50,296 bases of DNA from Candidatus Hadarchaeales archaeon (GCA_038842485.1 JAWBSP010000004.1:1-50296); one strand, 5' to 3'; shown: positions 5,795 through 22,494, counted from the stretch's first letter. Program-made: numbers and translations. The notes: generated by a model not told the origin, from the letters alone.

Positions 5795-8594
5795 GGTGGA
5801 TCGCCGGTTTGAAGGGCATGGCTTTGGATGCTCTCCCAGCCGGGTCATACCTTTCTGCATCGTCCTCCTGGAAGATCCTCACCGTGGCTCCCGTCTTCCT
5901 CTCCAGATAAATCAGGTTGCGTTTCAAATACTCAAGCTCGGAGGTTTGCACGGAGGCAAGTCTGCGCAGCTTCTCGGGATCCGTGAGCTTGATGAGATTC
6001 AGAAGTCCTTTGACGAACTCTGCCGCTGTTTTTTGGGGCACTCCCCGTTCCGAGGCGAACTCGAGCAGGTGTTTGAAGTCCGGGTTTCTGCTGGCCACCC
6101 TGAACACCTCCAGTTTCCATTTCGCAGCCACGTAGAGGCAGATGAGCGCCGGCTTCTTTTTTAGGACCCGCCTAATCTCGCCGATGTCCTCCAGCACGGA
6201 ATCCAGATACTCCTCCAGGGTCTCCAGCTCAGGGTTTATCAGCTCCTCCCTCACCTCCGGCCACCTCTGCGAGCTAGCGAACCCCTCACCCAGCTTGGAC
6301 CAGAGCTCCTCGCAGATGTGGGGGATGAAGGGCGAGAGGAGCTTCAGCCAGGACTTCACCACCTCCTTTCCCCCCCCGCCCGCTCCCCCTCTCTCGAGGT
6401 ACCGCTCCAAGTCCTTCATCACCTCAAAGAAAGCCACTTGGAGGGCTTTCCTGGTCTCAAAATTTTCCATGGCATGCGTGACTCTCCTCACTTGCTCCTG
6501 GAACCGGCTGAGGAGCCACCGGTCTATCTCCGCCTCCTCCCCCGGCAGGGAGAGGATGGTTTCTACGAGCGAAACGAAGCGGTTTAGATGGTTTGTGACC
6601 GACGATGCCTCTTTCTCCTTCCAGTTAAAGTCCTGCCAGGGTTCGGTGCCGGAAAGGAGATAGAACCTGACCCCGTCTGGGCCGTACTTCCCCACGGCTT
6701 CGGGTACGGTGACCAGCCAACCCTTCGAGGAGGACATCTTCTGGCCCTCGAGCATCACCATTCCTAGGGTGAGTATCCCTTTGGGGAGTTTTTGGGGAAA
6801 GAGGAGGGAGTGGTGGAAGACGAAGAAGGTGAGGTGGTTGGAGATCAGCTCATAGGCTGAGACCCGGTAGTCCAGCGGGTACCAGTACTCGAACTCGGCC
6901 CTCATCCGCTCGAGCAGATCGGGCTGGATGCCCTTTCTTTCCAGTTCGGGTGTTCTCCTCCCCCAGAAAATGAAATCGAAAACCCCATCGTCCAGCTCTT
7001 CCGCCTGCACTTGCTTTATGAGGTGCGAGATGGTGTAGTAGGCCATGTAAATGGTGGAGTCGCTCAGGGACTCGATGATCCAGCCCTGAGTCCAAGGAGC
7101 GGGGGTTCCGAGCCCTATCTTCCGCGTACAGGGCCATTCGTGCAGCCAGCCTATGGTGAACTCATACTGTGCTTTGCTCTCGGGAGGGATTATTCTCATC
7201 TGGGAAAGGGCTGAGCGAGCGAGCTCCTTCCACTCCTCCCTTCCGTAGTCTATGAACCACTGGTCTTCCACCACCCTCACCGTGCAGTTGGAGCCGCACC
7301 TGCACACCACGGGGAGGATGGAGAACTCGTGCATGATGGCAGCATCCCCCCTGGCAAGCAGGTCCTCCCTCACCCTCACCTTAGCCTGCGAAACGGGCAT
7401 TCCAGCGTATTCCCCCGTCCACTCCCTCATCCTACCCCGTGCGAATTCTTCCCTGTAGACCTCTTTCGTGGCTTCCTCCAGCTTGGGGTCCCGCTGGTTC
7501 TCTATCCCCATCCGCTTCACCACCTCGACGGCCGGGCACTCGCCGTAACCCGGCAGCTCAATGAGTGAAATGGGTTTCAGCTCCCGGGCGATTTCCCCCC
7601 ACTTGGAATCCCCCTGCAGGTCTTGGAGGGCAACATAGTCATATGGGGCGTGAGCCGGCACGGAACCCACCACGCCGGTGGCGGAATTTGGATCGGCGAA
7701 CTCGGCGGGAAGGATGGGCACACGCTTCCCGGTGAGGGGAACCTCCACCTCCGTGCCAAACTGTGGCTGGTACGGACGTGCTTCCCCCACTCTGTACCCC
7801 TGCTCCCTCAGCTTCGGGAGGGCCTGTTCGCTCACCACCCACTTCTCCCCATCCACCTCCGCCACCACGTATCTCGCCTTCGGGTTCAGCCAGATGTTGG
7901 TGAGGCCGAAGATGGTTTCGGGTCTCAGGGTTGCGGCGGGGAAGACGAGGTTCCCCTGTCTGTACTTGATGAGAGTGAAGTCCAGGATTTCCACCCCCTC
8001 CCCCTCCAGCAGGTCGTGGTCGGTCACGGGGTTGTTGCAACTTGGACACCATTTCACCGCATGCCTTCCCTTCACAATCAGCCCGCGGTCAAAGAGTTTG
8101 TGATACTGCCAAGTGATGAACCTCTGGTAGTGCGGGTCCACGGTGGTGAACTCCCTCCTCCAGTCGATGGAGAGGCCGAGCAGTTCCATTCCCTTGCGGT
8201 ATCCCAGCTCGCTGAGTCTAGCCCAGTATTCGGCGAAGTACTTTGGGTCCGAAAAGTTCCCCAGTTCCTCCTCCCGCACCCCGAACCTCAGCAGCATGGA
8301 AATCATCTGCCGATCCCTGTCTCTGACGCGCTTGGCTGCCCCCACGATGGGGGTCCCAGTAAAGTGATAGGCCATGGGGAAAAGGACGTTGAAGCCCCTC
8401 ATCCGCTTGTATCTGGCGATAACGTCCGGGATTACGTAGGTTCTGGCGTGCCCCAGATGCATGGGCCCGGAGACGTATGGATAAGCAACCGTGATGTAGA
8501 ATTTGGGTCTGTTGTCGGGTTCGGCATGGAAGGTGCCGGACTCGGCCCAGGCCTTCTGCCACTTTCTACCGATTCCTGCCCAGTCTACTGACAT
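5787..8594 (-). CDS. leuS: Leucine--tRNA ligase
   Basis: PYVSGPMHLGH (HIGH), ATLRPET editing domain, KMSSSKG, C-terminal KAMPFKPAIHLE. Confidence 0.97.
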   Translation of the reverse strand: MSVDWAGIGRKWQKAWAESGTFHAEPDNRPKFYITVAYPYVSGPMHLGHARTYVIPDVIARYKRMRGFNVLFPMAYHFTGTPIVGAAKRVRDRDRQMISMLLRFGVREEELGNFSDPKYFAEYWARLSELGYRKGMELLGLSIDWRREFTTVDPHYQRFITWQYHKLFDRGLIVKGRHAVKWCPSCNNPVTDHDLLEGEGVEILDFTLIKYRQGNLVFPAATLRPETIFGLTNIWLNPKARYVVAEVDGEKWVVSEQALPKLREQGYRVGEARPYQPQFGTEVEVPLTGKRVPILPAEFADPNSATGVVGSVPAHAPYDYVALQDLQGDSKWGEIARELKPISLIELPGYGECPAVEVVKRMGIENQRDPKLEEATKEVYREEFARGRMREWTGEYAGMPVSQAKVRVREDLLARGDAAIMHEFSILPVVCRCGSNCTVRVVEDQWFIDYGREEWKELARSALSQMRIIPPESKAQYEFTIGWLHEWPCTRKIGLGTPAPWTQGWIIESLSDSTIYMAYYTISHLIKQVQAEELDDGVFDFIFWGRRTPELERKGIQPDLLERMRAEFEYWYPLDYRVSAYELISNHLTFFVFHHSLLFPQKLPKGILTLGMVMLEGQKMSSSKGWLVTVPEAVGKYGPDGVRFYLLSGTEPWQDFNWKEKEASSVTNHLNRFVSLVETILSLPGEEAEIDRWLLSRFQEQVRRVTHAMENFETRKALQVAFFEVMKDLERYLERGGAGGGGKEVVKSWLKLLSPFIPHICEELWSKLGEGFASSQRWPEVREELINPELETLEEYLDSVLEDIGEIRRVLKKKPALICLYVAAKWKLEVFRVASRNPDFKHLLEFASERGVPQKTAAEFVKGLLNLIKLTDPEKLRRLASVQTSELEYLKRNLIYLERKTGATVRIFQEDDAERYDPAGRASKAMPFKPAIHLE

Positions 8595-9669: not shown

Positions 9670-10548
9670 TTACCTGAGCCCCAGAGCGGAGAGTATTTTT
9701 TTGAGCTCCTCCCTGGTCTCCCTCTTGACCTCCACCAGCGGGAGGCGTGGAGGGCCAGCTGGGAGTCCCATGAGTTCCAAGGCCGCCTTGACGGGGGCAG
9801 GGTTGGTTTCGAGGAACAGCGCTCTGAAGAGGGGGGAGAGCCTGTAGTGGATTTCTTGGGCTTCCTTGAGGTTCCCCTTTCTGAAGGCATCCACCATCTC
9901 CTTCACCAGCCTGGGGGCCACATTGGAGGCCACCGAGATCACCCCCACGCCTCCGAGGGCTAGGATGGGGAGCGTTTGGTTGTCGTTGCCCGAAAAGACC
10001 ACAAAATCCTTCCCCCTCGTCAGCTCAATTACCTCAGATACTTGCTCCACCGTGCTGGCTTCCTTGATTCCTACAATGTTTTTGAGTTCAGAGAGCCTAG
10101 CAACCGTCGTGGGGAGAAGGTTTACACCGGTTCGGGAGGGTATGTTGTACAGGATCTGTGGGATGTCCACCTCCTCGGCAAGGGTTTTGAAGTGCAGGTA
10201 GAGCCCCTCCTGCGTGGGGCGGTTGTAATAAGGAACCACCAGCAGGGCCCCGTCTGCCTTTACCTTTTTTGCAAAGCGCGTCAGCATGAGTGCCTCCCTG
10301 GTGGAGTTGCTCCCGGTACCGGCCACGACGGGGACCCTTCCCTTCACCTCCTTCACGACTATTTCTATCACCCGCTCGTGCTCCTCATACGAAAGGGTTG
10401 CGCACTCACCGGTAGTCCCAACTGGCACCAGCCCCTCTATGCCCTCCCGAAGCTGGAACCGGAGGAGTTCCTTCAGACCATCCTCGTCGAGCTTATTTTT
10501 CCTATCAAAGGGAGTAACCAGCGCCGTGTAGGTTCCTTCAAACCTCAC
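9670..10548 (-). CDS. dapA: 4-hydroxy-tetrahydrodipicolinate synthase
   Basis: GTTGE, PYYNRP, LYNIPSRTG, GIKEAS, ETNPAPVK. Confidence 0.96.
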   Translation of the reverse strand: MRFEGTYTALVTPFDRKNKLDEDGLKELLRFQLREGIEGLVPVGTTGECATLSYEEHERVIEIVVKEVKGRVPVVAGTGSNSTREALMLTRFAKKVKADGALLVVPYYNRPTQEGLYLHFKTLAEEVDIPQILYNIPSRTGVNLLPTTVARLSELKNIVGIKEASTVEQVSEVIELTRGKDFVVFSGNDNQTLPILALGGVGVISVASNVAPRLVKEMVDAFRKGNLKEAQEIHYRLSPLFRALFLETNPAPVKAALELMGLPAGPPRLPLVEVKRETREELKKILSALGLR

Positions 10549-11767
10549 CTATCTCCCTCATCACCTTTTTGAGGATTTCAACCCCCCTCTTTCTATCCTC
10601 CCAGTCCAGCAGGAAGCTGATGGAGGCTCTGCTTGTCATCATCTCCACGATGTTTATTCCCTTTTCCGCGAGGGGTTGGGTGAGCTTTGCAATCATGCCG
10701 GGAGTATCGATGAATTTCTCGCTCTCGCAGACGATTAAGGCGAGCCTGCCCGTCTTGGTCACGGATTTCATGTGCTTTTCCCTCAGCACTACTTGGTGGA
10801 GGGCCCGCTGGGCTTCCTCCCCCTGCTTCTCGTCTACGTAGATGGAAAAGGAACGGGGCCCGATTGAGACCCCAAAAATGTTTATCCCCCTCCTGCTTAG
10901 GGGTGAGGCCGCCTTGTAGAGGATTCCTGGCGTGGTCTGCATGTTCTCCCCCACCACGGTTACCATGGTGAGGGGATTTTCGTGAAGTCTAACCGACGCG
11001 GAGGCCTGCGTTGGTCCCACTATCTCCGTCCCCTTGGCAGATAAATCGCTGTGCCTAATGTTTATAATTCTGGCCCTCAACGCAGGGTCCTTGAAGTTGA
11101 GGGCGCGGGGGTGCATCTTTCCCATTCCAAACCGTGCGAGGTCCCTGAGTTCCTCGACCGTGATGGTGGGTAAAAGCTTTGCCCCCTTCACCGAGGAGGG
11201 GTCGGCGCTCATGATCCCGTCCACGTTCGTGACAATGATGGTCTCCGCTTTGAGGCATTGGCTCAGGACGAAGGCCGTGATGTCGCTACCGCCCCGGCCG
11301 AGTGTGGTCAGCCTCCCCGAGGCATCCTTCCCTAGAAAGCCGCAGACCACGGGGATCTCCCCCCTCTCAAGCATGGGTTCTAGGAATCTCTTGACTCTCT
11401 TCCTAGTTTCCTGCAGGTTCACTCCCGCGTTTCCTGGGGTGGAATCCGTGATGATAGGCCACTCTTGGTTTTCAGGGGTGATGGCGGTCGATTTGAGACC
11501 TAAGCTTCTGAGGGCAGCCGAAAACAATCTGGCAGAAATTACCTCCCCCATACCCATTATCGCATCCAGTTCCGCCGCTGTGATTTTTCCGTCCGTCGCC
11601 TCTCTGCTCAGGGAGATTAGCTGGTCGGTGGTGTCCCCCATGGCCGAGACCACCACCACTACCTTCTTCCCCTTTTCGATCTCCTTCTTCACGCATCGTG
11701 CAGCTCGCAGTATCTTCTTTCCGTCAGCGAGCACCGCACCGCCAAACTTCACTATCAGCCCAGCCAT
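10538..11767 (-). CDS. lysC: Aspartate kinase with ACT domains
   Basis: IVKFGG, VVSAMGDTTD, TLGRGGSD, two C-terminal ACT repeats. Confidence 0.95.
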   Translation of the reverse strand: MAGLIVKFGGAVLADGKKILRAARCVKKEIEKGKKVVVVVSAMGDTTDQLISLSREATDGKITAAELDAIMGMGEVISARLFSAALRSLGLKSTAITPENQEWPIITDSTPGNAGVNLQETRKRVKRFLEPMLERGEIPVVCGFLGKDASGRLTTLGRGGSDITAFVLSQCLKAETIIVTNVDGIMSADPSSVKGAKLLPTITVEELRDLARFGMGKMHPRALNFKDPALRARIINIRHSDLSAKGTEIVGPTQASASVRLHENPLTMVTVVGENMQTTPGILYKAASPLSRRGINIFGVSIGPRSFSIYVDEKQGEEAQRALHQVVLREKHMKSVTKTGRLALIVCESEKFIDTPGMIAKLTQPLAEKGINIVEMMTSRASISFLLDWEDRKRGVEILKKVMREIGEV

Positions 11768-13038
11768 GGCGGGATCCTGTCCATCCTGATTACCTCTTCG
11801 GGAGTTTCCCGCTCCCTGACCACCGCCACCCCCTTATCTGAGACCAGCACCATGGCCGGCCGGGGGTGGCCGGTGTGCTGGTTGGACATGGAGAGCCCAT
11901 AAGCCCCCGTGTCGAAGACCGCCAAGAGATCGCCAACTTTTGGTCTCGGGAGCTTCCTCTCCCACCCGATCGCGTCAGAGGTTTCGCAGAGTGGTCCTCC
12001 CACGTTAACCAAGCAATCATGCTCCTCCCTCATCCGGTTTGCGAGTTCCACGTGGTGGTAGGAGCCGTAGAGGGCCGGGCGGATGAGGGCGTTCATTCCT
12101 GCATCCACATATACCCAAGAGGGAGTGCCGGCTCTCTCCTTGAAGGCACCAACCCTGAGCAGGAGGATTCCCGCGTCCGCCACGAGGTACCTACCGGGCT
12201 CTAGCACCAGTGTGGGTGGCTCCCCCTCAATCTTCCTGAGTTCGCCTAAGATTCCCTCCGCTATCTTGTCGAGGGGAGCAGGATTCTCTCCTTTGTAGGG
12301 GATACCAATCCCTCCACCGAGATCTATCTTTTCCAAGTTGCAAATTTTCCGCGCTGCTGAAAAAAACTCAACCAATTTTCTGGCCTCCTCTATGAAGGGT
12401 TCCGGCTCAAGGATCTGTGATCCTATGTGGCAGTGCACCGCTTCCAGTAGGATGTGGCTTTCCCCTGCCGCCCTCCTGTAGGCTTCCAGGGCTTCTCCGG
12501 ATTCCAGATCCAGCCCGAACTTGCTTTCTCTTGCCCCAGCCATGATGTAGGGGTGAGTGGGTGGCCGGATGTTCGGGTTCACCCTAAAACCCACCCTCGC
12601 GTTCAGCCGCAACTTTTTGGCGATGGTACTCAACCTTTCAAATTCATCATAGCTGTCCAGGTTTATCAGCACGCCCGTTTTTATTGCGTGTTCCAGTTCT
12701 TCATCGCTTTTGTTTGGCCCATTAAAGACGATCTTCTCCGGCGTAACCCCAACCCGCAGGGCAATTTTGAGTTCGGTGAGAGAGGCGACCTCAGCCCCAG
12801 CTCCTTCCTGCTGGAGAATCTTGCAAACCGCTAGGTTGTTGTTCGCTTTGTAGGCGTAGCAGATGAGCAGTTTAGGCCAACTCGCAAAGGCCTCCCGGAA
12901 CCTGCGGTAGTTTTCCCTGATTCTGACCTCATCCACCACGTAGAGTGGGGTTCCAAATCTCTCCGCCAGCTCCACCGCATCGTACCCCCTGATGGTGAGG
13001 TGCCCACGCTCGTTCACACCGAAGTGCTCCTTTAGCAT
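11755..13038 (-). CDS. lysA: Diaminopimelate decarboxylase
   Basis: YAYKAN (PLP Lys), HCHIGSQ, LEPGRYL, GPLCETSD, GAYG. Confidence 0.95.
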   Translation of the reverse strand: MLKEHFGVNERGHLTIRGYDAVELAERFGTPLYVVDEVRIRENYRRFREAFASWPKLLICYAYKANNNLAVCKILQQEGAGAEVASLTELKIALRVGVTPEKIVFNGPNKSDEELEHAIKTGVLINLDSYDEFERLSTIAKKLRLNARVGFRVNPNIRPPTHPYIMAGARESKFGLDLESGEALEAYRRAAGESHILLEAVHCHIGSQILEPEPFIEEARKLVEFFSAARKICNLEKIDLGGGIGIPYKGENPAPLDKIAEGILGELRKIEGEPPTLVLEPGRYLVADAGILLLRVGAFKERAGTPSWVYVDAGMNALIRPALYGSYHHVELANRMREEHDCLVNVGGPLCETSDAIGWERKLPRPKVGDLLAVFDTGAYGLSMSNQHTGHPRPAMVLVSDKGVAVVRERETPEEVIRMDRIPPWLG

Positions 13039-14366
13039 GTTCTCTGGACTTCAGCGACGGCCTCCTCCAGCAGGTCCAGACCAAGGCTCAGCTCCTCCTC
13101 CTCGATGATGAGGGGTGGGGCAATTCTTATGGTCGAGTTTCCCCCCCTGAAGACGAGAATTCCCTTTTCTAGACCCTTCCTTACCACCAGATCTCTCTCC
13201 TCGGGAGCAGGCTTCTTCGTCTTCTGGTCTTTAACGAACTCGATGGCTAGCAGCAGTCCCTTGCCCCTTACGTCACCCACTATCTCGTATTTTTTCCATT
13301 CCTCCATTCTTCTCAGGGCCTTGCTGCCCAACTCTGCTGCTCTCTCGGTTAAACGTTCCCTCTCCAGAATCTTGAGACCCGCGAGTGCGGCTGCGCAAGC
13401 CAGCGCATTACCGCCGAAGGTGTTCGCGTGGGCTCCCTTTTTCCAGTCCATCACCTCTTTCCTCGCCACAATTGCTCCTATGGGTACCATGCCTCCGCTC
13501 AGGGCCTTTGCCAGACAAACGATGTCGGGAATCACGCCCCAATGCTCGATGGCAAGCATCTTGCCTGATCTCCCAAGCCCGGTTTGAACTTCGTCTGAGA
13601 TGAAGAGCCAGCCATGCTCTCTGCAGAGCTCGGCAATCATGGGGAAGAATTCTGGGGGAGGAACAATGTACCCGGAGGTTCCCTGAATGGGTTCCGTTAT
13701 CACGGCTCCTACCTCCGTGGGCGGGATGGTGGTACGCAGAGAGCGTCTGAGGTACTCAACGCAGAGAAAGTCACAGCCGGGATAGCTCTGTCCGAAGGCA
13801 CACCGGTAGCAGTAGGCAAAGGGCGCGAAATGAACTCCGGGCACGAGGGGGGAGAACCTTTCCCTGTGAACAAAATTGCTTCCCGTCAGGCTGAGGGCAC
13901 CCATGGTTCTTCCGTGGAAGGCACCAGTGAAGGAGATTATGCCCGCTCTCCCTGTGTGCCATCTAGCGCACTTGAAGGCCGCTTCAACTGCCTCCGTTCC
14001 CGAGTTACAGAAAAAGACACTTTTCTCAAAGTTTCCGGGCATGATGCTGGTGAGCTTCTCGGCCAGCTCCACCTGGAGTGGGTGATAAAAGTCTGTTCCC
14101 GGGACGTGGCCCAGCATGCCCGCCTGTGTTCTAACGGCTTCCACGATTTCCGGGTGGGAGTAGCCATAGTTTAAAACGAACATCCCCGACGAAAGGTCGA
14201 GAAAAGTGTTGCCGTCGACATCAATAAGGTAACAACCCTCCCCCCTTTCCCAAACGATTGGATCCTCCCTCGTGCAGGAGGGGGAGATCACTTTCTGGTC
14301 CCTCTCAATGATTTTCCTCGCTTTTGGACCCGGTATCTCCGTGAGAACTCTTGGACGCTTTCGCAT
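13032..14366 (-). CDS. Class III PLP aminotransferase (acetylornithine/4-aminobutyrate aminotransferase family)
   Basis: NSGTEAVEAA, AFHGRT, EPIQG, DEVQTGLGRSG, AKALSGG, TFGGN. Confidence 0.9.
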   Translation of the reverse strand: MRKRPRVLTEIPGPKARKIIERDQKVISPSCTREDPIVWERGEGCYLIDVDGNTFLDLSSGMFVLNYGYSHPEIVEAVRTQAGMLGHVPGTDFYHPLQVELAEKLTSIMPGNFEKSVFFCNSGTEAVEAAFKCARWHTGRAGIISFTGAFHGRTMGALSLTGSNFVHRERFSPLVPGVHFAPFAYCYRCAFGQSYPGCDFLCVEYLRRSLRTTIPPTEVGAVITEPIQGTSGYIVPPPEFFPMIAELCREHGWLFISDEVQTGLGRSGKMLAIEHWGVIPDIVCLAKALSGGMVPIGAIVARKEVMDWKKGAHANTFGGNALACAAALAGLKILERERLTERAAELGSKALRRMEEWKKYEIVGDVRGKGLLLAIEFVKDQKTKKPAPEERDLVVRKGLEKGILVFRGGNSTIRIAPPLIIEEEELSLGLDLLEEAVAEVQRTC

Positions 14367-14404
14367 GTAAATTTAACACTGGCAAATAAAAATCTAAAGT
14401 TAGT

Positions 14405-14992
14405 CTAGGGGATTTCGGCTGGAAGGACTTGGCAGTAGAGGTGGAGGACTTTCCCGATTTGAGCCGAAGGATCGATCAACTGCATTTCGCTTATCGGAAG
14501 TCTGATGAGGTAATGGTCGTTGTATCTCGTGGGGTCGTAAAGTGGGTCCTTGAGGTACTGGCGATGGGGCACCCATTTTTTCCTCAGAGGGGCACCTAGC
14601 TTGTCCCTGAAATTGAAGCAAACCTCACCCCTTTCGTCCAGCCCGCAGACGAGCGCAAGGGCACCTCCAATGATGGCCTTGTTTCCTTTAAACTTACCGT
14701 CAGGATAGGGAAGGAAAGGCAGCTTGTAGTTTTCCAACAGCCCCCTCAGCTCCCTCGCCAGCGCGCGCGCCTCCTGCTGGTTAAAGTTCCCGAAAAATTC
14801 TTTCTCCCCGTATATCTTTGCGTCCAACTGGTACATGGCCAGACTGAGCTTGGCTGGAACCTTCCTGCTCCAGCTCCACAGCCCCGCCCTGATTTTTGAG
14901 AAGAAATCCGATCTTTTGCGTAGCTTCTTTATTCCCTCCTCAAAGCGCTCTATCTCCTTCAATGCCTTGTTTGGCCGAATTTCTCCTGCCAT
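14405..14992 (-). CDS. Hypothetical protein, last gene of the coiled-coil cluster
   Basis: 195-aa ORF 1 bp from the upstream gene; no family recognised. Confidence 0.65.
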   Translation of the reverse strand: MAGEIRPNKALKEIERFEEGIKKLRKRSDFFSKIRAGLWSWSRKVPAKLSLAMYQLDAKIYGEKEFFGNFNQQEARALARELRGLLENYKLPFLPYPDGKFKGNKAIIGGALALVCGLDERGEVCFNFRDKLGAPLRKKWVPHRQYLKDPLYDPTRYNDHYLIRLPISEMQLIDPSAQIGKVLHLYCQVLPAEIP

Positions 14993-14993
14993 C

Positions 14994-15314
14994 TTATCGG
15001 GCAGTCAGTTGGTCGATCAGTTTATTGTACTCTTTGATGTCCCTCGTCAGCCTTTCGGCCAGTGCGGCATATTCCTCGCGCTCTCTCTCGACTTCAGCCA
15101 GTCTGCGCTTGAGGCTCTCAAGCTCCTTCATTGCTGTCTCATATTTTTGTCCCAGTTCTCTGATAGTTTCCTCATACTGCTCGCACCGCGCCCGGTATTC
15201 ATCGCTCTCCACCAGCCTCTTCTGAAGCGCCCGCAACGCCTTAAGCCTGAGTTCAGATCTTTTCAGCTCCTCGTCAATCTCGTCTAGGGGAAGCCTAGCC
15301 TTTCTTTCCGGCAT
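14994..15314 (-). CDS. Coiled-coil protein
   Basis: Continuous E/K/R/L-rich heptads; paralog of 15295-15624. Confidence 0.75.
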   Translation of the reverse strand: MPERKARLPLDEIDEELKRSELRLKALRALQKRLVESDEYRARCEQYEETIRELGQKYETAMKELESLKRRLAEVEREREEYAALAERLTRDIKEYNKLIDQLTAR

Positions 15315-15624
15315 AAGCCCGCACTAAAAGCTTGGGATTTTGGGAGGCTTTGAGCAACGCATCCACGAGTTTATTGTACTCCATGAGTTCTCTCTTAACA
15401 GCCTCAGTTTTCATCCGGCATCGCGCGCACATCTGGTTGTACTCCTTTATTTTCGCCTGCAGGAGAGCATTTTGTTTCCTGGACTCCTCGAGTTCGGCTC
15501 CTAGGGCCCTTATTTGTGCTTGGAGCTCCGAAATCTGTCGCTCGTACTCCACAAATCTTCCGACAATCCCAGCAAAAGCACGCTCGACTTTACTCGCCGG
15601 TTTTCCCCCTCCTCGCGCCATCAT
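15295..15624 (-). CDS. Coiled-coil protein
   Basis: Heptad pattern; aligns without gaps to 14994-15314. Confidence 0.75.
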   Translation of the reverse strand: MMARGGGKPASKVERAFAGIVGRFVEYERQISELQAQIRALGAELEESRKQNALLQAKIKEYNQMCARCRMKTEAVKRELMEYNKLVDALLKASQNPKLLVRAYAGKKG

Positions 15625-15671
15625 CTTTTAAAGGATATCTCAATAAAAGGGGGCTGTGGGATTGCCTTTAC

Positions 15672-16241
15672 CTAGGCGAGTCCCCTTCGCATCATGTCCT
15701 CCAGCATGGCTAGACCCTTCTCGTACATCCTGAGTTCGCTCTCCCTTTCTCTGGTTAACTCTCTGTAGTGGGACAGCCTAGTGCGATATCTCTCGAGTTT
15801 CCGCGTAAGTTCGCCTATCTTACTTTCATATTCGCTCTGGAGATCCAAGAGCTCCTGTTTAACCAAGGAGAGCTGGTCACCCAGTTCCTCCCGGACCTTC
15901 TGCGTTTCTTTTAATTTTTCAAGAGCTTTTGCCAGTTCAGCTTCCAGAAATCTGCATCTCTGCTCGGACCGCTGGATTTGTGCCCTTGCTTGATTTAGTT
16001 CCCTCCTCGCGCTCTCTTCGAGCAGTGAAATTCTCCTCCGGAGGTCACCCAGCATTCGGTTGCTTAAGGATTTTTCATATTCCATCAACTGGTGCTCTTG
16101 TTTCTCCAGTTCGGATGCTAGGATTTCGTGTGCCCGCTTGAGTTGCTCGTTCCGAGCCCGGAGTCTTGCTAGATCTTCCCTAATTGTACGTTCGGTTTCC
16201 AAAAGTTTTTTATGAATCTTCTTCAGTATCTTTTCCTTCAT
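15672..16241 (-). CDS. Long coiled-coil protein
   Basis: 189 aa, no prolines, near-continuous heptads. Confidence 0.75.
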   Translation of the reverse strand: MKEKILKKIHKKLLETERTIREDLARLRARNEQLKRAHEILASELEKQEHQLMEYEKSLSNRMLGDLRRRISLLEESARRELNQARAQIQRSEQRCRFLEAELAKALEKLKETQKVREELGDQLSLVKQELLDLQSEYESKIGELTRKLERYRTRLSHYRELTRERESELRMYEKGLAMLEDMMRRGLA

Positions 16242-16271
16242 TACACTTTTTATATTCGTTAATACAAAATG

Positions 16272-17544: not shown

Positions 17545-17622
17545 GGGCCCGTCGTCCAGTCAGGACAGGACGTCTGGCTTCGGACCAGAAGGTCGTGGGT
17601 TCGAATCCCACCGGGCCCGCCA
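17545..17622 (+). tRNA. tRNA-Arg(TCG), CCA encoded
   Basis: GGGCCCG...TCTGG-CTTCGGA-CCAGA...GGTTCGAATCC...CGGGCCCGCCA. Confidence 0.96.
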
Positions 17623-17678
17623 CTGAAATCAAAAAGATTTATGCCAATTTACCACAAAAACACAAAAATTATGGTGGA

Positions 17679-17945
17679 ATGGCAGAAATAGTGAAAATCG
17701 ATAGGTCAGGCCGAATGGTGATCCCGAAGAGGGTTCGCAGGGAACTAGGTATAGACAAAGCAGGTCAACTTCTCCTGAGCGTCCAAGGAAAGGATCGACT
17801 ACTGCTCCAAAAGCTAGACATAGAATCGTTGGTTGAGGGGCTCAAGGAGGAGATAGCCGGAAAAGATGTCGATGCCATAGTTAAAACAGTCAGGAAGGAA
17901 ATCAATGCGAAAATCAAGGCCCTCTACCCAGACCTTTTTGCTTGA
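17679..17945 (+). CDS. AbrB/MazE/SpoVT-family antitoxin
   Basis: VKIDRSGRMVIPKRVRRELGI; likely start ATG 17679, since the longer ORF runs through the tRNA. Confidence 0.88.
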   Translation: MAEIVKIDRSGRMVIPKRVRRELGIDKAGQLLLSVQGKDRLLLQKLDIESLVEGLKEEIAGKDVDAIVKTVRKEINAKIKALYPDLFA

Positions 17946-18012
17946 TACAAACGTGTTCATCGCCGCCATCGAGGATCCAGAGAGACAAACGAGTGCCCTT
18001 CGGCTGCTTTAG
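17905..18012 (+). pseudogene. Truncated VapC/PIN toxin remnant
   Basis: MRKSRPSTQTFLLDTNVFIAAIEDPERQTSALRLL*; PIN N-terminal LDTNV motif overlapping the antitoxin, stop after 35 aa. Confidence 0.75.
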
Positions 18013-18041
18013 GTGACCTTGGAAAGCCACTTGGTGGCCTG

Positions 18042-18575
18042 CTAGGGAGCCTGCCTGAAGGCCTCTACAAACCTCTCGAAGGAGTCCTTCCCGTAAAGGC
18101 AGATGGTTACCAGCTCCAAGGATTTTTTTCTCTTGGAGAACCTCCCGAGTTCGGTTTTCATTACCTTGGCACAGATCTCCATTGGATAACCGTAGACACC
18201 CGTGGAAATGGCGGGGAGCGCCAGCGTTCTGAGTCCGAGCCTGTCAGCGGCCTGGAGGGAGTTCCTAACAGCCTCCGCAAGTTTTTCCTCGCCCTCTTCG
18301 CCGTAGATGGGACCAACGGCATGGATGACGTACTTGGCTTTCAACCTTCCAGCGCCGGTGACCGCCACCTCCCCCGTCTTCAAGGGTCCATGCTTTTTCA
18401 CGTACTCGTCACTTTCCCTCTGAATCTCCTCCCCTCCCCTCCTCACAATCGCCGCGGCCACACCTCCTCCATGTTTCAGATATCGATTGGCGGCATTCAC
18501 GATGGCGTCGCACTCCAGCAGCGTGATGTCGCCCTCAACTATCCTTACTTTTAGATCTCCAAATTCGAATTCCAT
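18042..18575 (-). CDS. Macro-domain protein (ADP-ribose binding/hydrolase)
   Basis: GDIT, IVNAAN..LKHGGGVA, VIHAVGP, PAISTGVYG. Confidence 0.93.
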   Translation of the reverse strand: MEFEFGDLKVRIVEGDITLLECDAIVNAANRYLKHGGGVAAAIVRRGGEEIQRESDEYVKKHGPLKTGEVAVTGAGRLKAKYVIHAVGPIYGEEGEEKLAEAVRNSLQAADRLGLRTLALPAISTGVYGYPMEICAKVMKTELGRFSKRKKSLELVTICLYGKDSFERFVEAFRQAP

Positions 18576-18601
18576 TTCAGACTTGGAGCAAAATTAAAAA
18601 T

Positions 18602-18675
18602 GGGCCGGTAGTCTAGCCAGGAGAGGACGGAGGCCTCCGGAGCCTCTGACACGGGTTCGAATCCCGTCCGGCCCG
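18602..18675 (+). tRNA. tRNA-Arg(CCG)
   Basis: GGGCCGG...GAGGC-CTCCGGA-GCCTC...GGTTCGAATCC...CCGGCCCG. Confidence 0.95.
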
Positions 18676-18738
18676 CTTGATCGAAGAGCTCAAAATATAG
18701 CGAATCACCAGCAAAAGGTCAACAGAACTGGGTTCGAT

Positions 18739-19332
18739 TTACAATTTGGTCCGGGAGACAGGCAGCAGGGAAACTCCAAACCTTTTGGCAGTTTCGCGCA
18801 AGTAATTTTGATCCACGTTCAATTTCGGCAAAATGCGGCGGAGCTGGTCGGTATCCTTTTTTCTCCCCGCAGCCAGCTTGCAGAGGATAGAGTCCTCGAG
18901 TTTCGCGAGATGAACTACAACTGGTTTGGAGCGAATCTCCAGCTTTCCCAGCTCTTCCCTGGCATTATGGTACGTGTACCGGAAAAGGTCTTGGACGCGC
19001 GGTTTCGACGGGCGGACGAACTCAACTGGAAAAAGTTCCTTCCGCAGGGGAACGAGCATACGTGCCTCAAACTTGATTACCACTTCGACCTCGTCTGGGT
19101 GAGCACGCCTAAATCTTAGAAAGGCAAGATTGATTTCATCAAGGTCTGCTGGTGACTCAAGCAGCAAATCGATGTCGCGCGTTTGGTAAATTGCTTCACC
19201 CACCTTCTCGAGTGCGAGCGCGAAGACGGCCCCGCCGAAGACGACCACCTTTGGGTAGTACACCCCCTCCGATGCGAGGGCGGAGAGTGCATACTCAATT
19301 GAGTCAAGAGCCAGCTTCCTAAACTTCGACAC
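18739..19332 (-). CDS. Pol-beta-superfamily nucleotidyltransferase (DUF6036/AbiEii-like)
   Basis: VVFGGAV, TRDIDLL, CKLAAGRKKD. Confidence 0.8.
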   Translation of the reverse strand: MSKFRKLALDSIEYALSALASEGVYYPKVVVFGGAVFALALEKVGEAIYQTRDIDLLLESPADLDEINLAFLRFRRAHPDEVEVVIKFEARMLVPLRKELFPVEFVRPSKPRVQDLFRYTYHNAREELGKLEIRSKPVVVHLAKLEDSILCKLAAGRKKDTDQLRRILPKLNVDQNYLRETAKRFGVSLLPVSRTKL

Positions 19333-19333
19333 C

Positions 19334-19810
19334 TCACCCCTCCACTAATTCCGCCCACGAGCGTCGCACGCTTGGCCACCGGGAACAGGAGCAGATTGGA
19401 ACACCGCGCTCCCAATCCAAGCCAAGCATGTGAGCGTAGGCGGAAACGAGAGCGCACCCCCTGTTTTGAAACTCGGTTGCCCTGCAGCTCTTACAATGTT
19501 CAAGTGCGAGCTTCAGAATGGCGCGGAGGTCGTCCTCAGACAGTTCGTGGCCCATTTCCCCGCCGCGCAAGAGTTCGAGAATTCTGGCTCCGCGGGGGGT
19601 CAGTGAAATCCGGCCGGTTGGTCTGCCCCGGCCTGCGTGAACGGTTTTCGAACATACCAGCCCGCGAGCCCGTAGCCGCTCGATCAGCTTGGAAACTTCT
19701 CTCACGTTTGTTTTTAGATCTCGCGCCAGCGCGGTGACCGAACTTCCGTGAACTAGGGAAAGTAACCGTTCCATCGCGTCTGGCAAAGCTAGGCCGCGCT
19801 TTATCGCCAC
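19334..19810 (-). CDS. MarR-like winged-HTH protein with Cys-rich C-terminal domain
   Basis: VTALARDL....EVSKLIERLRARGLV, LTPRG; C-terminal CKSC...C...CSC. Confidence 0.7.
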   Translation of the reverse strand: MAIKRGLALPDAMERLLSLVHGSSVTALARDLKTNVREVSKLIERLRARGLVCSKTVHAGRGRPTGRISLTPRGARILELLRGGEMGHELSEDDLRAILKLALEHCKSCRATEFQNRGCALVSAYAHMLGLDWERGVPICSCSRWPSVRRSWAELVEG

Positions 19811-19939
19811 AATAAACTGACGATTTCGTAACTTATATATTTTCAGGTCCTTACCTTAGGCGGCATAGTACACTCCCAGCCAAACCTTCCAGATTTTGGC
19901 GGGGCGGCGATTTTTATCTATTGCAGGACGAAGATTTGA

Positions 19940-20161
19940 ATGCCAAGAGCTTCTGAAAAGGAAATAATAGAGTATCTGCGGTCGAAAGGGGGATCGGCAA
20001 CTACCGATGAGATGCGAGCCGATGGGCTGGGCGATGTGGGAAAGGGCTGGAACACCATGAGGGTGCTCAGGCGGATGCTTCAGAAGGGATTGGTAGAGAG
20101 GGAGATCAGACACACCCCGGAGCGTCAGACCATCATCAGGTGGTCCCTTAAGAAACGCTGA
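19940..20161 (+). CDS. Small winged-helix protein
   Basis: EIIEYLRSKGG...VLRRMLQKGLVER; stop overlaps the next start. Confidence 0.65.
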   Translation: MPRASEKEIIEYLRSKGGSATTDEMRADGLGDVGKGWNTMRVLRRMLQKGLVEREIRHTPERQTIIRWSLKKR

Positions 20162-20577
20162 TGAGGGAGTACCACGAGTTCTCCGAGGCGCTGAAGAGAC
20201 TAGAGCTAATACACACCCTAGGGCCCGAGAATCTGGTGAAGTTCAGGTTCGTGGTGGATCTGGGCGAGCGTAGTGTGGAGGAGGCTGTCAGGGCGCTCTT
20301 CAGGATGGGGCAGCTCGCGCTCGGCGGAAAAGAACCGCCAGGGGATGACCAGCAGCTCATCTCTCTGCTGAGGAGGAGAAAGATCCTTTCGTCCGCACAG
20401 GTCAGGAAAATGCGTAGTCTCCTCACCTTCAGGAAGGCCCTGTTGGAGGCGAAGTCGGGCGAGGAGAGCATCTCGGCGAGGGAGGTGTACGCGGCCTTCG
20501 AGAAACTGAGGAAGGACCTGACGGAACTGGGGAGGACCCTTTACGGTTACCTGCCGTTCGAGATGAGGGAACGCTAA
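20161..20577 (+). CDS. HEPN/DUF86-like protein with degenerate active site
   Basis: All-helical; LRRRKILS....KMRSLLTFRKALLE..ISAREVY matches the DUF86 layout but lacks RNxxxH. Confidence 0.55.
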   Translation: MREYHEFSEALKRLELIHTLGPENLVKFRFVVDLGERSVEEAVRALFRMGQLALGGKEPPGDDQQLISLLRRRKILSSAQVRKMRSLLTFRKALLEAKSGEESISAREVYAAFEKLRKDLTELGRTLYGYLPFEMRER

Positions 20578-21005
20578 CCTATATAGGTGAGCTTCTCCTT
20601 TCCTTCCTTCTGTTGCGGCTGAGGCTGGGCCGAAAAACTCGGCAGTGGAACTGGTGGAGGGACCCCCACCGTTTTGGAGAGGATGACCGCCTCAATGAGG
20701 GAGGTGTTGGTTATGGTCTGGAGGAGGCTGGGCGGAGGAGGCAGGTGCTTCTTGTACCCCTCCTGAATTTTCTCCAGCTCCTCTTTTTCGCCCGAAATGA
20801 TGGCTTTACCCTTGAGGCTGATCTGGGCTACCGAGGGATTGTAGGTGATGGAGGTCACGAAGGGCAGGATGAGTTTGTTTTCACCCATCTCCACGCTGAC
20901 GATGCTCACGTTTGCCGAGACCTGAACGTTTGGAGGGAGCGGTTTTCCGGTTTCCCAGAGTTTTTCGGCCGAGGCGTAATAAATCTGGATGTTTATCTCC
21001 ATCAC
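20574..21005 (-). CDS. Conserved archaeal hypothetical protein (SecB-like fold suspected)
   Basis: YNPSVAQISLKG, ILSKTVGVPPPVPLP pattern. Confidence 0.7.
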   Translation of the reverse strand: MMEINIQIYYASAEKLWETGKPLPPNVQVSANVSIVSVEMGENKLILPFVTSITYNPSVAQISLKGKAIISGEKEELEKIQEGYKKHLPPPPSLLQTITNTSLIEAVILSKTVGVPPPVPLPSFSAQPQPQQKEGKEKLTYIG

Positions 21006-21048
21006 ACACTACGGTGTAGGCTAAAAGTCTTCTGTGGTTGGATTTGAT

Positions 21049-21174
21049 GGGGCCGTAGTGTAGCATGGTCTAGCACGGCGGGCTCCAGTGGACTTGTGGG
21101 TCTGCTGACGGAAGGATGATGACCCATTGGAGCGAAGAGACCCGCAAACCCGGGTTCAAATCCTGGCGGCCCCA
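21049..21174 (+). tRNA. tRNA-Trp(CCA) with 51-nt intron at 37/38 (21089-21139)
   Basis: GGGGCCG...GCGGG-CTCCAG|intron|A-CCCGC...GGTTCAAATCC...CGGCCCCA. Confidence 0.95.
21089..21139 (+). ncRNA. Intron-encoded box C/D guide RNA for tRNA-Trp positions 34 and 39
   Basis: Guide TGTGGGTCTG + CTGA; ATGATGA box; guide TTGGAGC + degenerate AAGA box; N+5 rule gives C39 and C34. Confidence 0.8.
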
Positions 21175-21213
21175 CTCCCAACAGGGTTCAAATACCACCT
21201 TCCAAGGCCTCTG

Positions 21214-22494
21214 ATGGGGAGGGCGAGGTACTCCCACCTGCTGGAGGACCCCGAGGTGAGGAGGTGGTACGAGAACGTGGCGAGGGGGTCCAGGCTCTGG
21301 GCCGACGTCTGCCTGAGGAGGCTCGGCTCCTTCTGCGCCGAGCTCGGGATGGCCCCGAGGGATCTGGCGGGCCTCCCCGACAGGAGGCTCCACCAGGTCC
21401 TCCTCGACTTCGTCTCCGCCAAGGAGAGGGAGGGGTACGCCGGGAGCTACATCGCCTGCATCATGAAGTCCGTGAGGTCCTGGCTCTCCTTCAACATGCG
21501 GAGGCCCGAGATCAAGATCAAAATCAGGGGCGCGCAGGACACGCCGACCCTGAGGAACGAGAGGATCCCGACGAGGGAGGAGCTCAGGAGGATCTTCCTC
21601 TCGGCGGACAAGAAGACGAGGGTTGCGTGCGCTCTCGTCGCCCACGCTGGGCTTAGGATCCAGACGATCGGCAACTACGAGGGGAAGGACGGGCTGAGGC
21701 TCAAGGACCTCCCCGAGCTCACGGTGAAGGGGAGGAGGGTCAGCTTCAGGAAGATCCCGACGCTGATCGTAGTCAGGAGGGAGCTCTCGAAGGCCGGCCA
21801 CCAGTACCTGACCTTCCTCAGCAGGGAGGGCTGCGAGTACCTGAGGGACTACCTCGAGGAGAGGCTGGCTTCAGGGGAGAGGCTGGGGCCCGAGTCCGCC
21901 GTCGTGACACCAAAGGTCAGGATCAAGCCCTTCATCCGCGCCAACAACATCGGTGACGACATCAGGAAGGCCATCCGCACCGCTGGCTTCCCCTGGAGGC
22001 CCTACGTGCTAAGGTCCTACTTCGACACGCAGCTCATGCAGGCGGAGTCCCGGGGCCTCGTGCTCAGGGACTACCGCCAGTTCTGGATGGGGCACAGGGG
22101 GGACATAGAGGCGAGGTACACCACCAACAAGGGGATGCTGCCGCAGGAGGTGATAGAGGACATGAGGGAGGCGTACAAGAGGTCGCAAAGGTTCCTGCAG
22201 ACCGTTGAGACGGAGGAGGAGGTTAGGCTCGAGCCCGAGTTCAGGCGCCAGTTGCTCCTCGCCTCCGGGTTCAAATCCGCCGAGGTGGAGAGGATGGATT
22301 TGGAAAGGATGGGGGAGGAGGAGTTCCAGGAATTGATATGAAAGAAAATCATGAGTTTTGTTACCGAGGGCGGTGCAAAGCAGAAGGTCATACCGTTGAG
22401 CAGGATCGAGGAATACCTCAAAAAGGGATGGGAGTTTCAGGCCGCCCTGCCCGACGGCAAGGCGATAGTGAAGATGCCATCCAGTCCCAAATAG
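21214..22494 (+). pseudogene. Tyrosine recombinase/integrase interrupted by in-frame TGA at 22339-22341; catalytic core intact
   Basis: HAGLR, PYVLRSYF, WMGH, ARYT; frame continues after TGA as KKIM...QKVIPLSRIEEYLKKGWEFQAALPDGKAIVKMP to TAG 22494; directly downstream of tRNA-Trp. Confidence 0.85.

Follow-up and report, generated by a model that had tools for sequence, protein, structure and literature searches.

Intermediate filament (IF) proteins follow a head-rod-tail plan: their rod keeps a constant length between the motifs LNxR and YRKLLEGEE, and coil 2 contains a stutter at a conserved place (PMC3065449). The rod measures ~310 residues (PMC3065449, PMC2289357), LNDR is given as the helix-initiation motif (10.64898/2026.02.23.707361), and isomin is described as a true IF protein whose termination motif is poorly kept (PMC3065449). 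The coiled-coil-rich proteins of bacteria are presented as unrelated and probably convergent, with ZicK and ZacK forming interdependent heteropolymers (PMC7766704). The locus described here lies in a window of 50,296 nucleotides, the whole stretch of DNA that was analysed, which is contig C4 of genome G000 (Candidatus Hadarchaeales archaeon). A first-pass annotation had read it as an operon of coiled-coil proteins with IF-like ends, a candidate cytoskeletal heteropolymer.

A portable four-gene block

The annotation of four adjoining genes, coding for proteins of 189, 109, 106 and 195 residues, is borne out by four minus-strand ORFs at 14405–16241 (P1–P4, Table 1), flanked by phosphoglycerate mutase and class-III aminotransferase genes. 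DNA of the window occurs in hot-spring metagenome runs, of which 10 entries hold at least half of its words and 5 of these are possible sources; no RNA run was among those listed. All of P1–P4 stay below the curated cut-offs of Pfam and NCBIfam, where P1–P3 give weak generic coiled-coil matches and P4 nothing, and a membrane-spanning stretch is absent from all four (highest 19-residue hydropathy 1.09). The GC3 of P1 and P2 is low (3rd percentile). A scan with a sigma-70 promoter and terminator model, which is unsuited to archaea, gave results at chance level. In the window (15625–15640), L025 and L024 the P2 start is closely preceded by an AT-rich element (GATAT...TTAAAA), whose distance from the ATG varies and which is possibly an internal promoter, an operator or an initiation aid.

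Table 1. Features of the P1–P4 block and its edges in the window
Feature	Position	Strand	Basis
P1, 189-aa coiled-coil protein	15672..16241	-	ORF call; orthologs 41–43% identical
P2, 109-aa coiled coil	15295..15624	-	ORF call
P3, 106-aa coiled coil, P2 paralog	14994..15314	-	ORF call
P4, 195-aa orphan	14405..14992	-	ORF call
38-nt spacer before class-III aminotransferase gene, downstream edge of insertion	14367..14404	-	
30-nt AT-rich leader from phosphoglycerate mutase stop codon to P1, upstream edge of inserted block	16242..16271	-	
P1–P2 spacer with AT-rich element common to three species	15625..15671	-	

P1–P4 form a portable operon restricted to one Ca. Hadarchaeota genus. Their order is identical in three species, namely G000, its congener G002 and the metagenome locus L024, at two unrelated genomic sites, with orthologs that are 41–43% (P1), 40–45% (P2), 47–53% (P3) and 56–58% (P4) identical. 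In each species P2 and P3 share 20 nt, and P3 and P4 abut within 1 nt. The reading of the locus as an operon is supported, and the four linked genes can be regarded as one functional unit. Identity across the block is 40–58%, compared with 66–87% for housekeeping genes. A contig that is 90–95% alike covers the whole block with indels confined to the gene junctions. Of the P4 differences, 21 were listed and 15 of these fall at third codon positions (138 further differences lie outside the list). Both features point to purifying selection on the block. Its patchy, fast-evolving distribution would agree equally with an accessory or mobile role and with one in cell shape.

Clear matches to the block are found in 2 of the 66 genomes of the phylum, G000 and G002; weak matches were counted as generic (P3 in 15 genomes at E ≥ 5e-5, P2 in 2, P4 in 1). 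At L034 (G043:C31:13507–13773) a 141-aa frame matches positions 14–100 of the P2 profile (E 4e-4) and could be a distant P2 relative. A search with the P4 profile over 1.84 billion representatives returned 2 proteins, one of them P0015, and 6 clusters of the P4 family are known. A literature search, outside which most subscription papers lie, found no account of this cassette or of an IF-like heteropolymer in Hadarchaeota, and within that literature the cassette is undescribed, as well as being real, rare and genus-restricted.

The mode of entry can be read from the flanks. In G002 and in the congener G001 the mutase gene is directly followed by the aminotransferase gene, an empty site, and the 38-nt spacer of the G002 empty site agrees in length and core with the 38 nt downstream of P4. 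This match places the downstream end of the inserted DNA, and the point of entry was accordingly immediately after the stop codon of the mutase gene. The block neighbours in G002 and L024 are genes that we take to be isochorismatase-like on one side and DUF72-like on the other, and the G000 counterparts of these flanks sit on other contigs. G001, which is 92% complete, lacks the block at both sites.

As to the wider surroundings, the block is a passenger heading a lysine-type operon in the window, where the aminotransferase gene (assigned by Pfam) is followed, over 9670–14366, by genes presumed to encode diaminopimelate decarboxylase, aspartate kinase and dihydrodipicolinate synthase. Two tRNA-Arg genes (17545–17622 and 18602–18676) precede small ORFs that are presumably nucleotidyltransferase-like and regulator-like, together with a 404-aa ORF (21127–22341) that to us reads like a tyrosine recombinase; this stretch, 17545–22341, is possibly an integrated element. 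A run of genes presumed to be DUF72-like, short SMC-like (622–623 aa), ScpA-like and ScpB-like is present at L003:5245–9217, L024:8336–12308 and G000 C2:34802–39052. This run is kept in G000, G002 and L024, and G001 has at least the first two of its genes. L024 carries a small insert (6707–8262) that separates P4 from the DUF72-like gene and consists of ORFs that we take to be ferredoxin-like, thioredoxin-like and ArsR-like, and this insert is absent from G002. Because the flanks differ between species, a functional tie of the block to the SMC-like run or to the lysine genes as constant context was dropped.

Coiled-coil rods and the comparison with intermediate filaments

The first three proteins had been annotated as coiled coil throughout. 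All three do carry a heptad repeat, and every chain also departs from that description. P1 consists of segment A (~8–59), a helix break (~59–65, with a proline in both orthologs) and a long segment B/C (~63–185) with a register shift near 131–141. P2 keeps a single continuous register over ~12–95, ends in an NP-capped basic tail (charge +3 to +5) and has a net charge of +10, and in P3 the first ~28 residues lie in a different register from the core, which is continuous. Cysteines occupy core positions in all three: P1 Cys96 at heptad a (invariant, 3/3), P3 Cys44 at a (invariant, 5/5) and C66-x-x-C69 of P2 at a and d; in a parallel homodimer they would face their twins. Exactly 14 residues, equivalent to two heptads and including the CxxC, are missing from three P2 relatives (P0032, P0033 and P0034), from which it follows that heptad phase matters whilst length and the CxxC cysteines do not. 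As these relatives lack both cysteines, the idea of a four-Cys site common to P1, P2 and P3 was weakened. P0034 and the P4 relative P0027 may share one contig.

The ungapped pattern EY-x10-IRxLG-x39-EYNKL(V/I)DxL reported for P2 and P3 proved exact over 65 residues. The alignment scores 85 (BLOSUM62), which was equalled by none of 300 plain and none of 300 heptad-preserving shuffles, and the hhalign probability is 94.2% (E 1.1e-7). These data show that P2 and P3 are true paralogs which arose by duplication. IRxLG itself is not kept in the orthologs, the invariant residues across three species being only Y, RxL, L and YN-x3-DxL. P1 had been grouped with P2 and P3 as a third paralog sharing the terminal motif, and this part of the grouping was not supported (hhalign 7.0% and 2.3%). 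A regular expression made after the three ends had been seen matches only P1, P2 and P3 among 923 genome ORFs. When a profile of the P2 and P3 ends was applied to the terminal window of P1, it gave 16.1 and 17.0 in the orthologs and <12.9 in the window, and the score for such a P1-like match was reached by at least 46 of 921 other ORFs.

The ends of the three chains had been likened to EIATYRKLLE, the end of coil 2B in IFs and lamins. All three quoted ends are present in the sequence, and in each the terminal tyrosine lies at d, as in the IF termination motif. P2 and P3 reach half of the self-score (24 of 48, a value attained by 13 of 923 ORFs including these two); P1 is at background, with a best window of 17 that is internal and is matched by 199 of 923 ORFs. 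The terminal windows of the orthologs drift to 16–22. Both P2 orthologs have their best window internally, and one such internal window scores 28, above all 272,341 genome windows. Tyrosine stands at heptad d in 3/3, 4/4 and 4/5 instances in P2 and in 4/5, 3/4 and 3/4 in P3, which means that the 'termination motif' closes a series of heptads that resemble one another.

Other hallmarks of IF proteins were compared too. LNxR, YRKLL and EGE occur in none of 13 sequences, and the head-rod-tail plan is not found in chains of 189, 109 and 106 residues that have no non-helical head. For the coil 2 stutter, there is the register shift of P1, and the cores of P2 and P3 run on uninterrupted. The best match to PF00038 reaches 19.6 bits (model positions 207–291) against a cut-off of 40, with nothing above the cut-off in any of three genomes, and matches of P3 span positions 206–291 of 313, stopping short of the model end. 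None of three C-terminal fragments matches PF00038, and signal below the cut-off is seen in 12 of 14 control genomes too. In a search of the PDB, designed PPR repeats beat every IF chain as a match to the P2/P3 end, an illustration of how little it takes to match a short helical motif. Kinship with the coil-2B motif is thus not upheld, EGEE and a 310-residue rod also being absent, and convergence on a coiled-coil pattern, offered initially as the alternative, is the better reading given that the Tyr-at-d heptad recurs inside the chains. On present sequence comparisons the block is best read as unrelated by descent to intermediate filaments, and true IF homology of P1–P3 is exceedingly improbable.

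The building block of IFs is a parallel in-register dimer. The pairing of the rods was approached by counting g–e′ charge pairs, totalled for three orthologs, in 282 arrangements of five segments, parallel as well as antiparallel. By this crude and unbenchmarked score, with registers assigned in this analysis, the parallel in-register P3:P3 pair ranks 1st of 282 (26 attractive and 0 repulsive, symmetric pairs doubled; permutation p 0.0016) and P2:P2 ranks 5th (p 0.028), whilst in-register P2:P3 comes 112th and P1 aligned on its terminal tyrosine with P2 or P3 comes 200th and 241st. The self-complementary pattern of P3 is found in 5/5 sequences, and the P1 segments give no charge signal (p 0.24–0.76). 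The charge count favours parallel in-register homo-oligomers of P3 and of P2 over in-register P2:P3. It speaks against the in-register heterodimer or motif-aligned heterotrimer that had been proposed, as does the loss of two inter-motif heptads from some P2 sequences. Heterodimers are still possible, because P2:P3 with an offset of one heptad comes about 6th and end-aligned pairs of the short P2 variants with P3 are favourable (4–5 attractive, 1–2 repulsive).

P4 and its candidate barrel

P4 comprises an N-terminal helix, a basic-aromatic linker (~29–44), two helices and a candidate barrel (~100–195). In 6 of 7 sequences the linker has 3–4 aromatic and 4–6 basic residues, a composition suited to contact with a membrane interface or with nucleic acid, and a role for P4 as an anchor, as suggested at the outset, is plausible. 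P0015, a 178-aa relative that is 31% identical, is encoded on a contig of 5.4 kb; it has a short hydrophobic start and neither the N-terminal helix nor the basic linker.

AlphaFold2 models of P4 have a pLDDT of 48 at full length and a mean of 57 for residues 40–195. In structure comparison, 24 of 50 and 8 of 50 listed matches lie over the C-terminal part of P4, and all are carriers, some of them presumed carriers, of a double-psi barrel, a six-stranded fold with two psi loops; the commonest neighbours are the N-domains of p97, CDC48 and VAT. In these comparisons 67–77 residues of the ~100–195 model superpose at ~3 Å rmsd with Z of 3.6–5.4, which lies in the tool's noise range for common arrangements, and the full-length model has only helical structural matches. 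Profile comparison of P4 with CDC48-N, AMP-phosphorylase-N and FwdD-like families gave hhalign probabilities of at most 0.3%, no better than shuffles, where positive controls reached 87%, and no profile similarity was seen between the two halves of the barrel (hhalign, ≤ 0.3%). Foldseek searches with both P4 models against the PDB, and with the core model against BFVD, returned nothing at E ≤ 0.001, and the ESM Atlas held no usable match for P4 or P0015. In sequence searches of the PDB, P1 and P4 found nothing under E 0.09, and P2 and P3 found generic coiled coils and PPR repeats. On the model, the C-terminal part of P4 is probably, with some reserve, a double-psi beta-barrel.

A ~520-aa barrel-bearing protein of other Hadarchaeota was considered as a fused form of the block and rejected; it reads, in our judgement, as AMP phosphorylase. 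Proteins of this type (L070–L081; PF02359-positive, ~510–570 aa, AMP phosphorylase-like, with an N-terminal barrel) are found in many genomes of the phylum's other families, and with the query used none was found in the three genomes of this genus.

Possible roles and relation to known systems

As the likeliest single reading, though with the chances somewhat against it, we tentatively propose that the block encodes a cytosolic coiled-coil scaffold or tether made of homo-oligomeric, Cys-stapled rods, with P4 as anchor or adaptor. P3, and probably P2, would first form parallel in-register homo-oligomers about 11–14 nm long, the best-supported step of the scheme. Core cysteines, second in support, would staple each rod, either by disulfides or through a four-Cys metal site at the P2 CxxC pair; since some P2 relatives lack the CxxC, stapling there would be an optional thermostabilising feature. 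The rods and the longer, hinged P1 may then associate laterally or end to end to give a tether or lattice, which is third in support. In the least supported step, P4 would dock the scaffold on an acidic surface, likeliest the membrane, through its basic-aromatic linker, with the barrel as binding module. Such a scaffold would work like the coiled-coil-rich scaffold proteins of bacteria, by convergence. A bolder version, in which the three kinds of Cys-stapled rod co-polymerise into an independently evolved archaeal multi-chain cytoskeleton that needs no nucleotide, the stand-alone barrel protein pins it to the membrane and the four genes move as a unit from one genomic site to another, is distinctly unlikely. 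If the rods do polymerise, they would offer a small, heat-stable archaeal model for the convergent origin of filament-forming coiled coils and would show the ancient double-psi barrel newly employed to anchor a scaffold; otherwise the block would add another orphan accessory operon to those of an uncultured genus. In neither case does it argue that intermediate filaments arose in archaea.

Other explanations draw on much of the same evidence. The heteropolymer of the first-pass annotation, a keratin-like obligate assembly in which P1, P2 and P3 align in register on the IF-like end and P4 caps the filaments, would account for the ungapped paralogy of P2 and P3 over 65 residues, the coupled genes, the terminal tyrosine at d in all three chains, the sub-threshold matches of P3 within coil 2 of PF00038 and the P2 ortholog window scoring 28. 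The register shift of P1 is loosely like the IF stutter, and isomin shows that a true IF protein can have a poor termination motif (PMC3065449). It is nevertheless improbable, in view of the absence of LNxR, YRKLL and EGE from 13/13 sequences, the lack of PF00038 matches among the C-terminal fragments (0/3), the equally sub-cut-off signal in 12/14 control genomes, the better PDB match of PPR repeats, the ranks of 112, 200 and 241 for the pairs concerned and a motif-to-motif distance in P2 that varies by 14 residues. A scaffold for the nucleoid or for DNA partition, of the KfrA type, in which basic P2 and P4 bind DNA, with the barrel as the nucleic-acid-binding module, and the rods bridge or space it, is unlikely but deserves attention. 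KfrA-type proteins consist of a head plus a coiled coil, and double-psi barrels occur in nucleic-acid polymerases. Among 793 ORFs ranked by net positive charge, P2 falls in the top 4% and P4 in the top 11%, and the P2 tail has a charge of +3 to +5. A single DUF72-like gene (with the small insert as well in L024) separates the block from the downstream, same-strand SMC-like, ScpA-like and ScpB-like run in G002 and L024. However, this run is on another contig in G000, the block has neither a helix-turn-helix nor a ParA-like partner, and the aromatic-rich linker of P4 suits a membrane interface equally.

An adaptor for protein quality control, with a prefoldin-like holdase of coiled-coil arms and, joined to it, a stand-alone CDC48/VAT-N-like barrel whose task would be to bind unfolded clients or to compete for cofactors of CDC48, would fit the predominance of p97/CDC48/VAT N-domains among the neighbours of P4, the hot-spring habitat and the CDC48 encoded by the genome. 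P4 does not resemble in sequence the N-domains of CDC48 from its own phylum, though, genes for prefoldin alpha and beta are elsewhere, and the rods lack the prefoldin beta-hairpin, with no family match above cut-off, all of which leaves this reading quite improbable. It is very doubtful that the block is a structural module (a fibre, scaffold or tube) captured from an archaeal virus or mobile element and domesticated or in transit, even though the clean insertion at a stop codon, the occupation of two sites in congeners, the absence from a 92%-complete congener, the low GC3 of P1 and P2 (3rd percentile) and the orphan status of the proteins would all agree with such an origin. IMG/VR yielded no confirmed relative among 125 candidates, BFVD no match under E 0.2, and PHROG no match to the window's P4 and only weak coiled-coil matches to P1–P3; moreover the block contains no integrase, terminal repeats or further cargo, and it has stayed intact across 40–58% divergence.

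Returning to the proposed scaffold or tether, its closest comparisons are with systems that share its heptad architecture or its barrel. The block had been held to be distinct from prefoldin, ATPase stalks and SMC proteins, and this was confirmed by scores below cut-off and by true copies elsewhere in the genome. Block proteins score at most 14 bits against prefoldin (PF02996/PF01920), whose alpha and beta genes are at G000 C20 and C15; the sole match to PF01991, subunit E of the A/V-type ATPase stalk, is on G000 C12; and against SMC/Rad50 families, whose members have an ABC-ATPase head, the block scores at most 22.8 bits for cut-offs of 300–1000, with an SMC-like gene on G000 C2. Proper copies of CDC48 and FtsZ are likewise elsewhere in G000, and P1 scores 16.2 bits against the crescentin rod (PF19220; cut-off 100). 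Archaeal prefoldin, the A-type ATPase stalk and SMC/Rad50 thus resemble the block in chain length or in generic coiled-coil score, but the block falls far below their cut-offs. With IFs and lamins it shares a turn of the type [ED]-[LI]-x-x-Y-x-[KR]-L with tyrosine at d that ends the block's coiled coils, paralogous chains as in keratin pairs and, in P1, one register shift; it differs in that the motif pattern recurs internally and that a ~310-residue rod, LNxR and EGEE are lacking. The P4 model superposes on the double-psi barrels of the p97/CDC48/VAT N-domain, the AMP phosphorylase N-domain, FwdD and the DEPDC5 N-terminus, but P4 has a long insertion between the halves, is not fused to an ATPase or enzyme and is modelled with low confidence. 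IF proteins and the bacterial coiled-coil-rich filament proteins self-assemble into filaments independently of nucleotides. Crescentin, TlpA, FilP and ZicK/ZacK are, like P1–P3, soluble and near-all-helical heptad proteins of narrow taxa, several chains of which may act together, whereas the block is archaeal and has short chains of 106–189 residues that match no family, with an orphan barrel-like partner. By analogy, the block is best read as a putative scaffold convergent with these bacterial coiled-coil-rich proteins (PMC7766704, 10.1101/674176).
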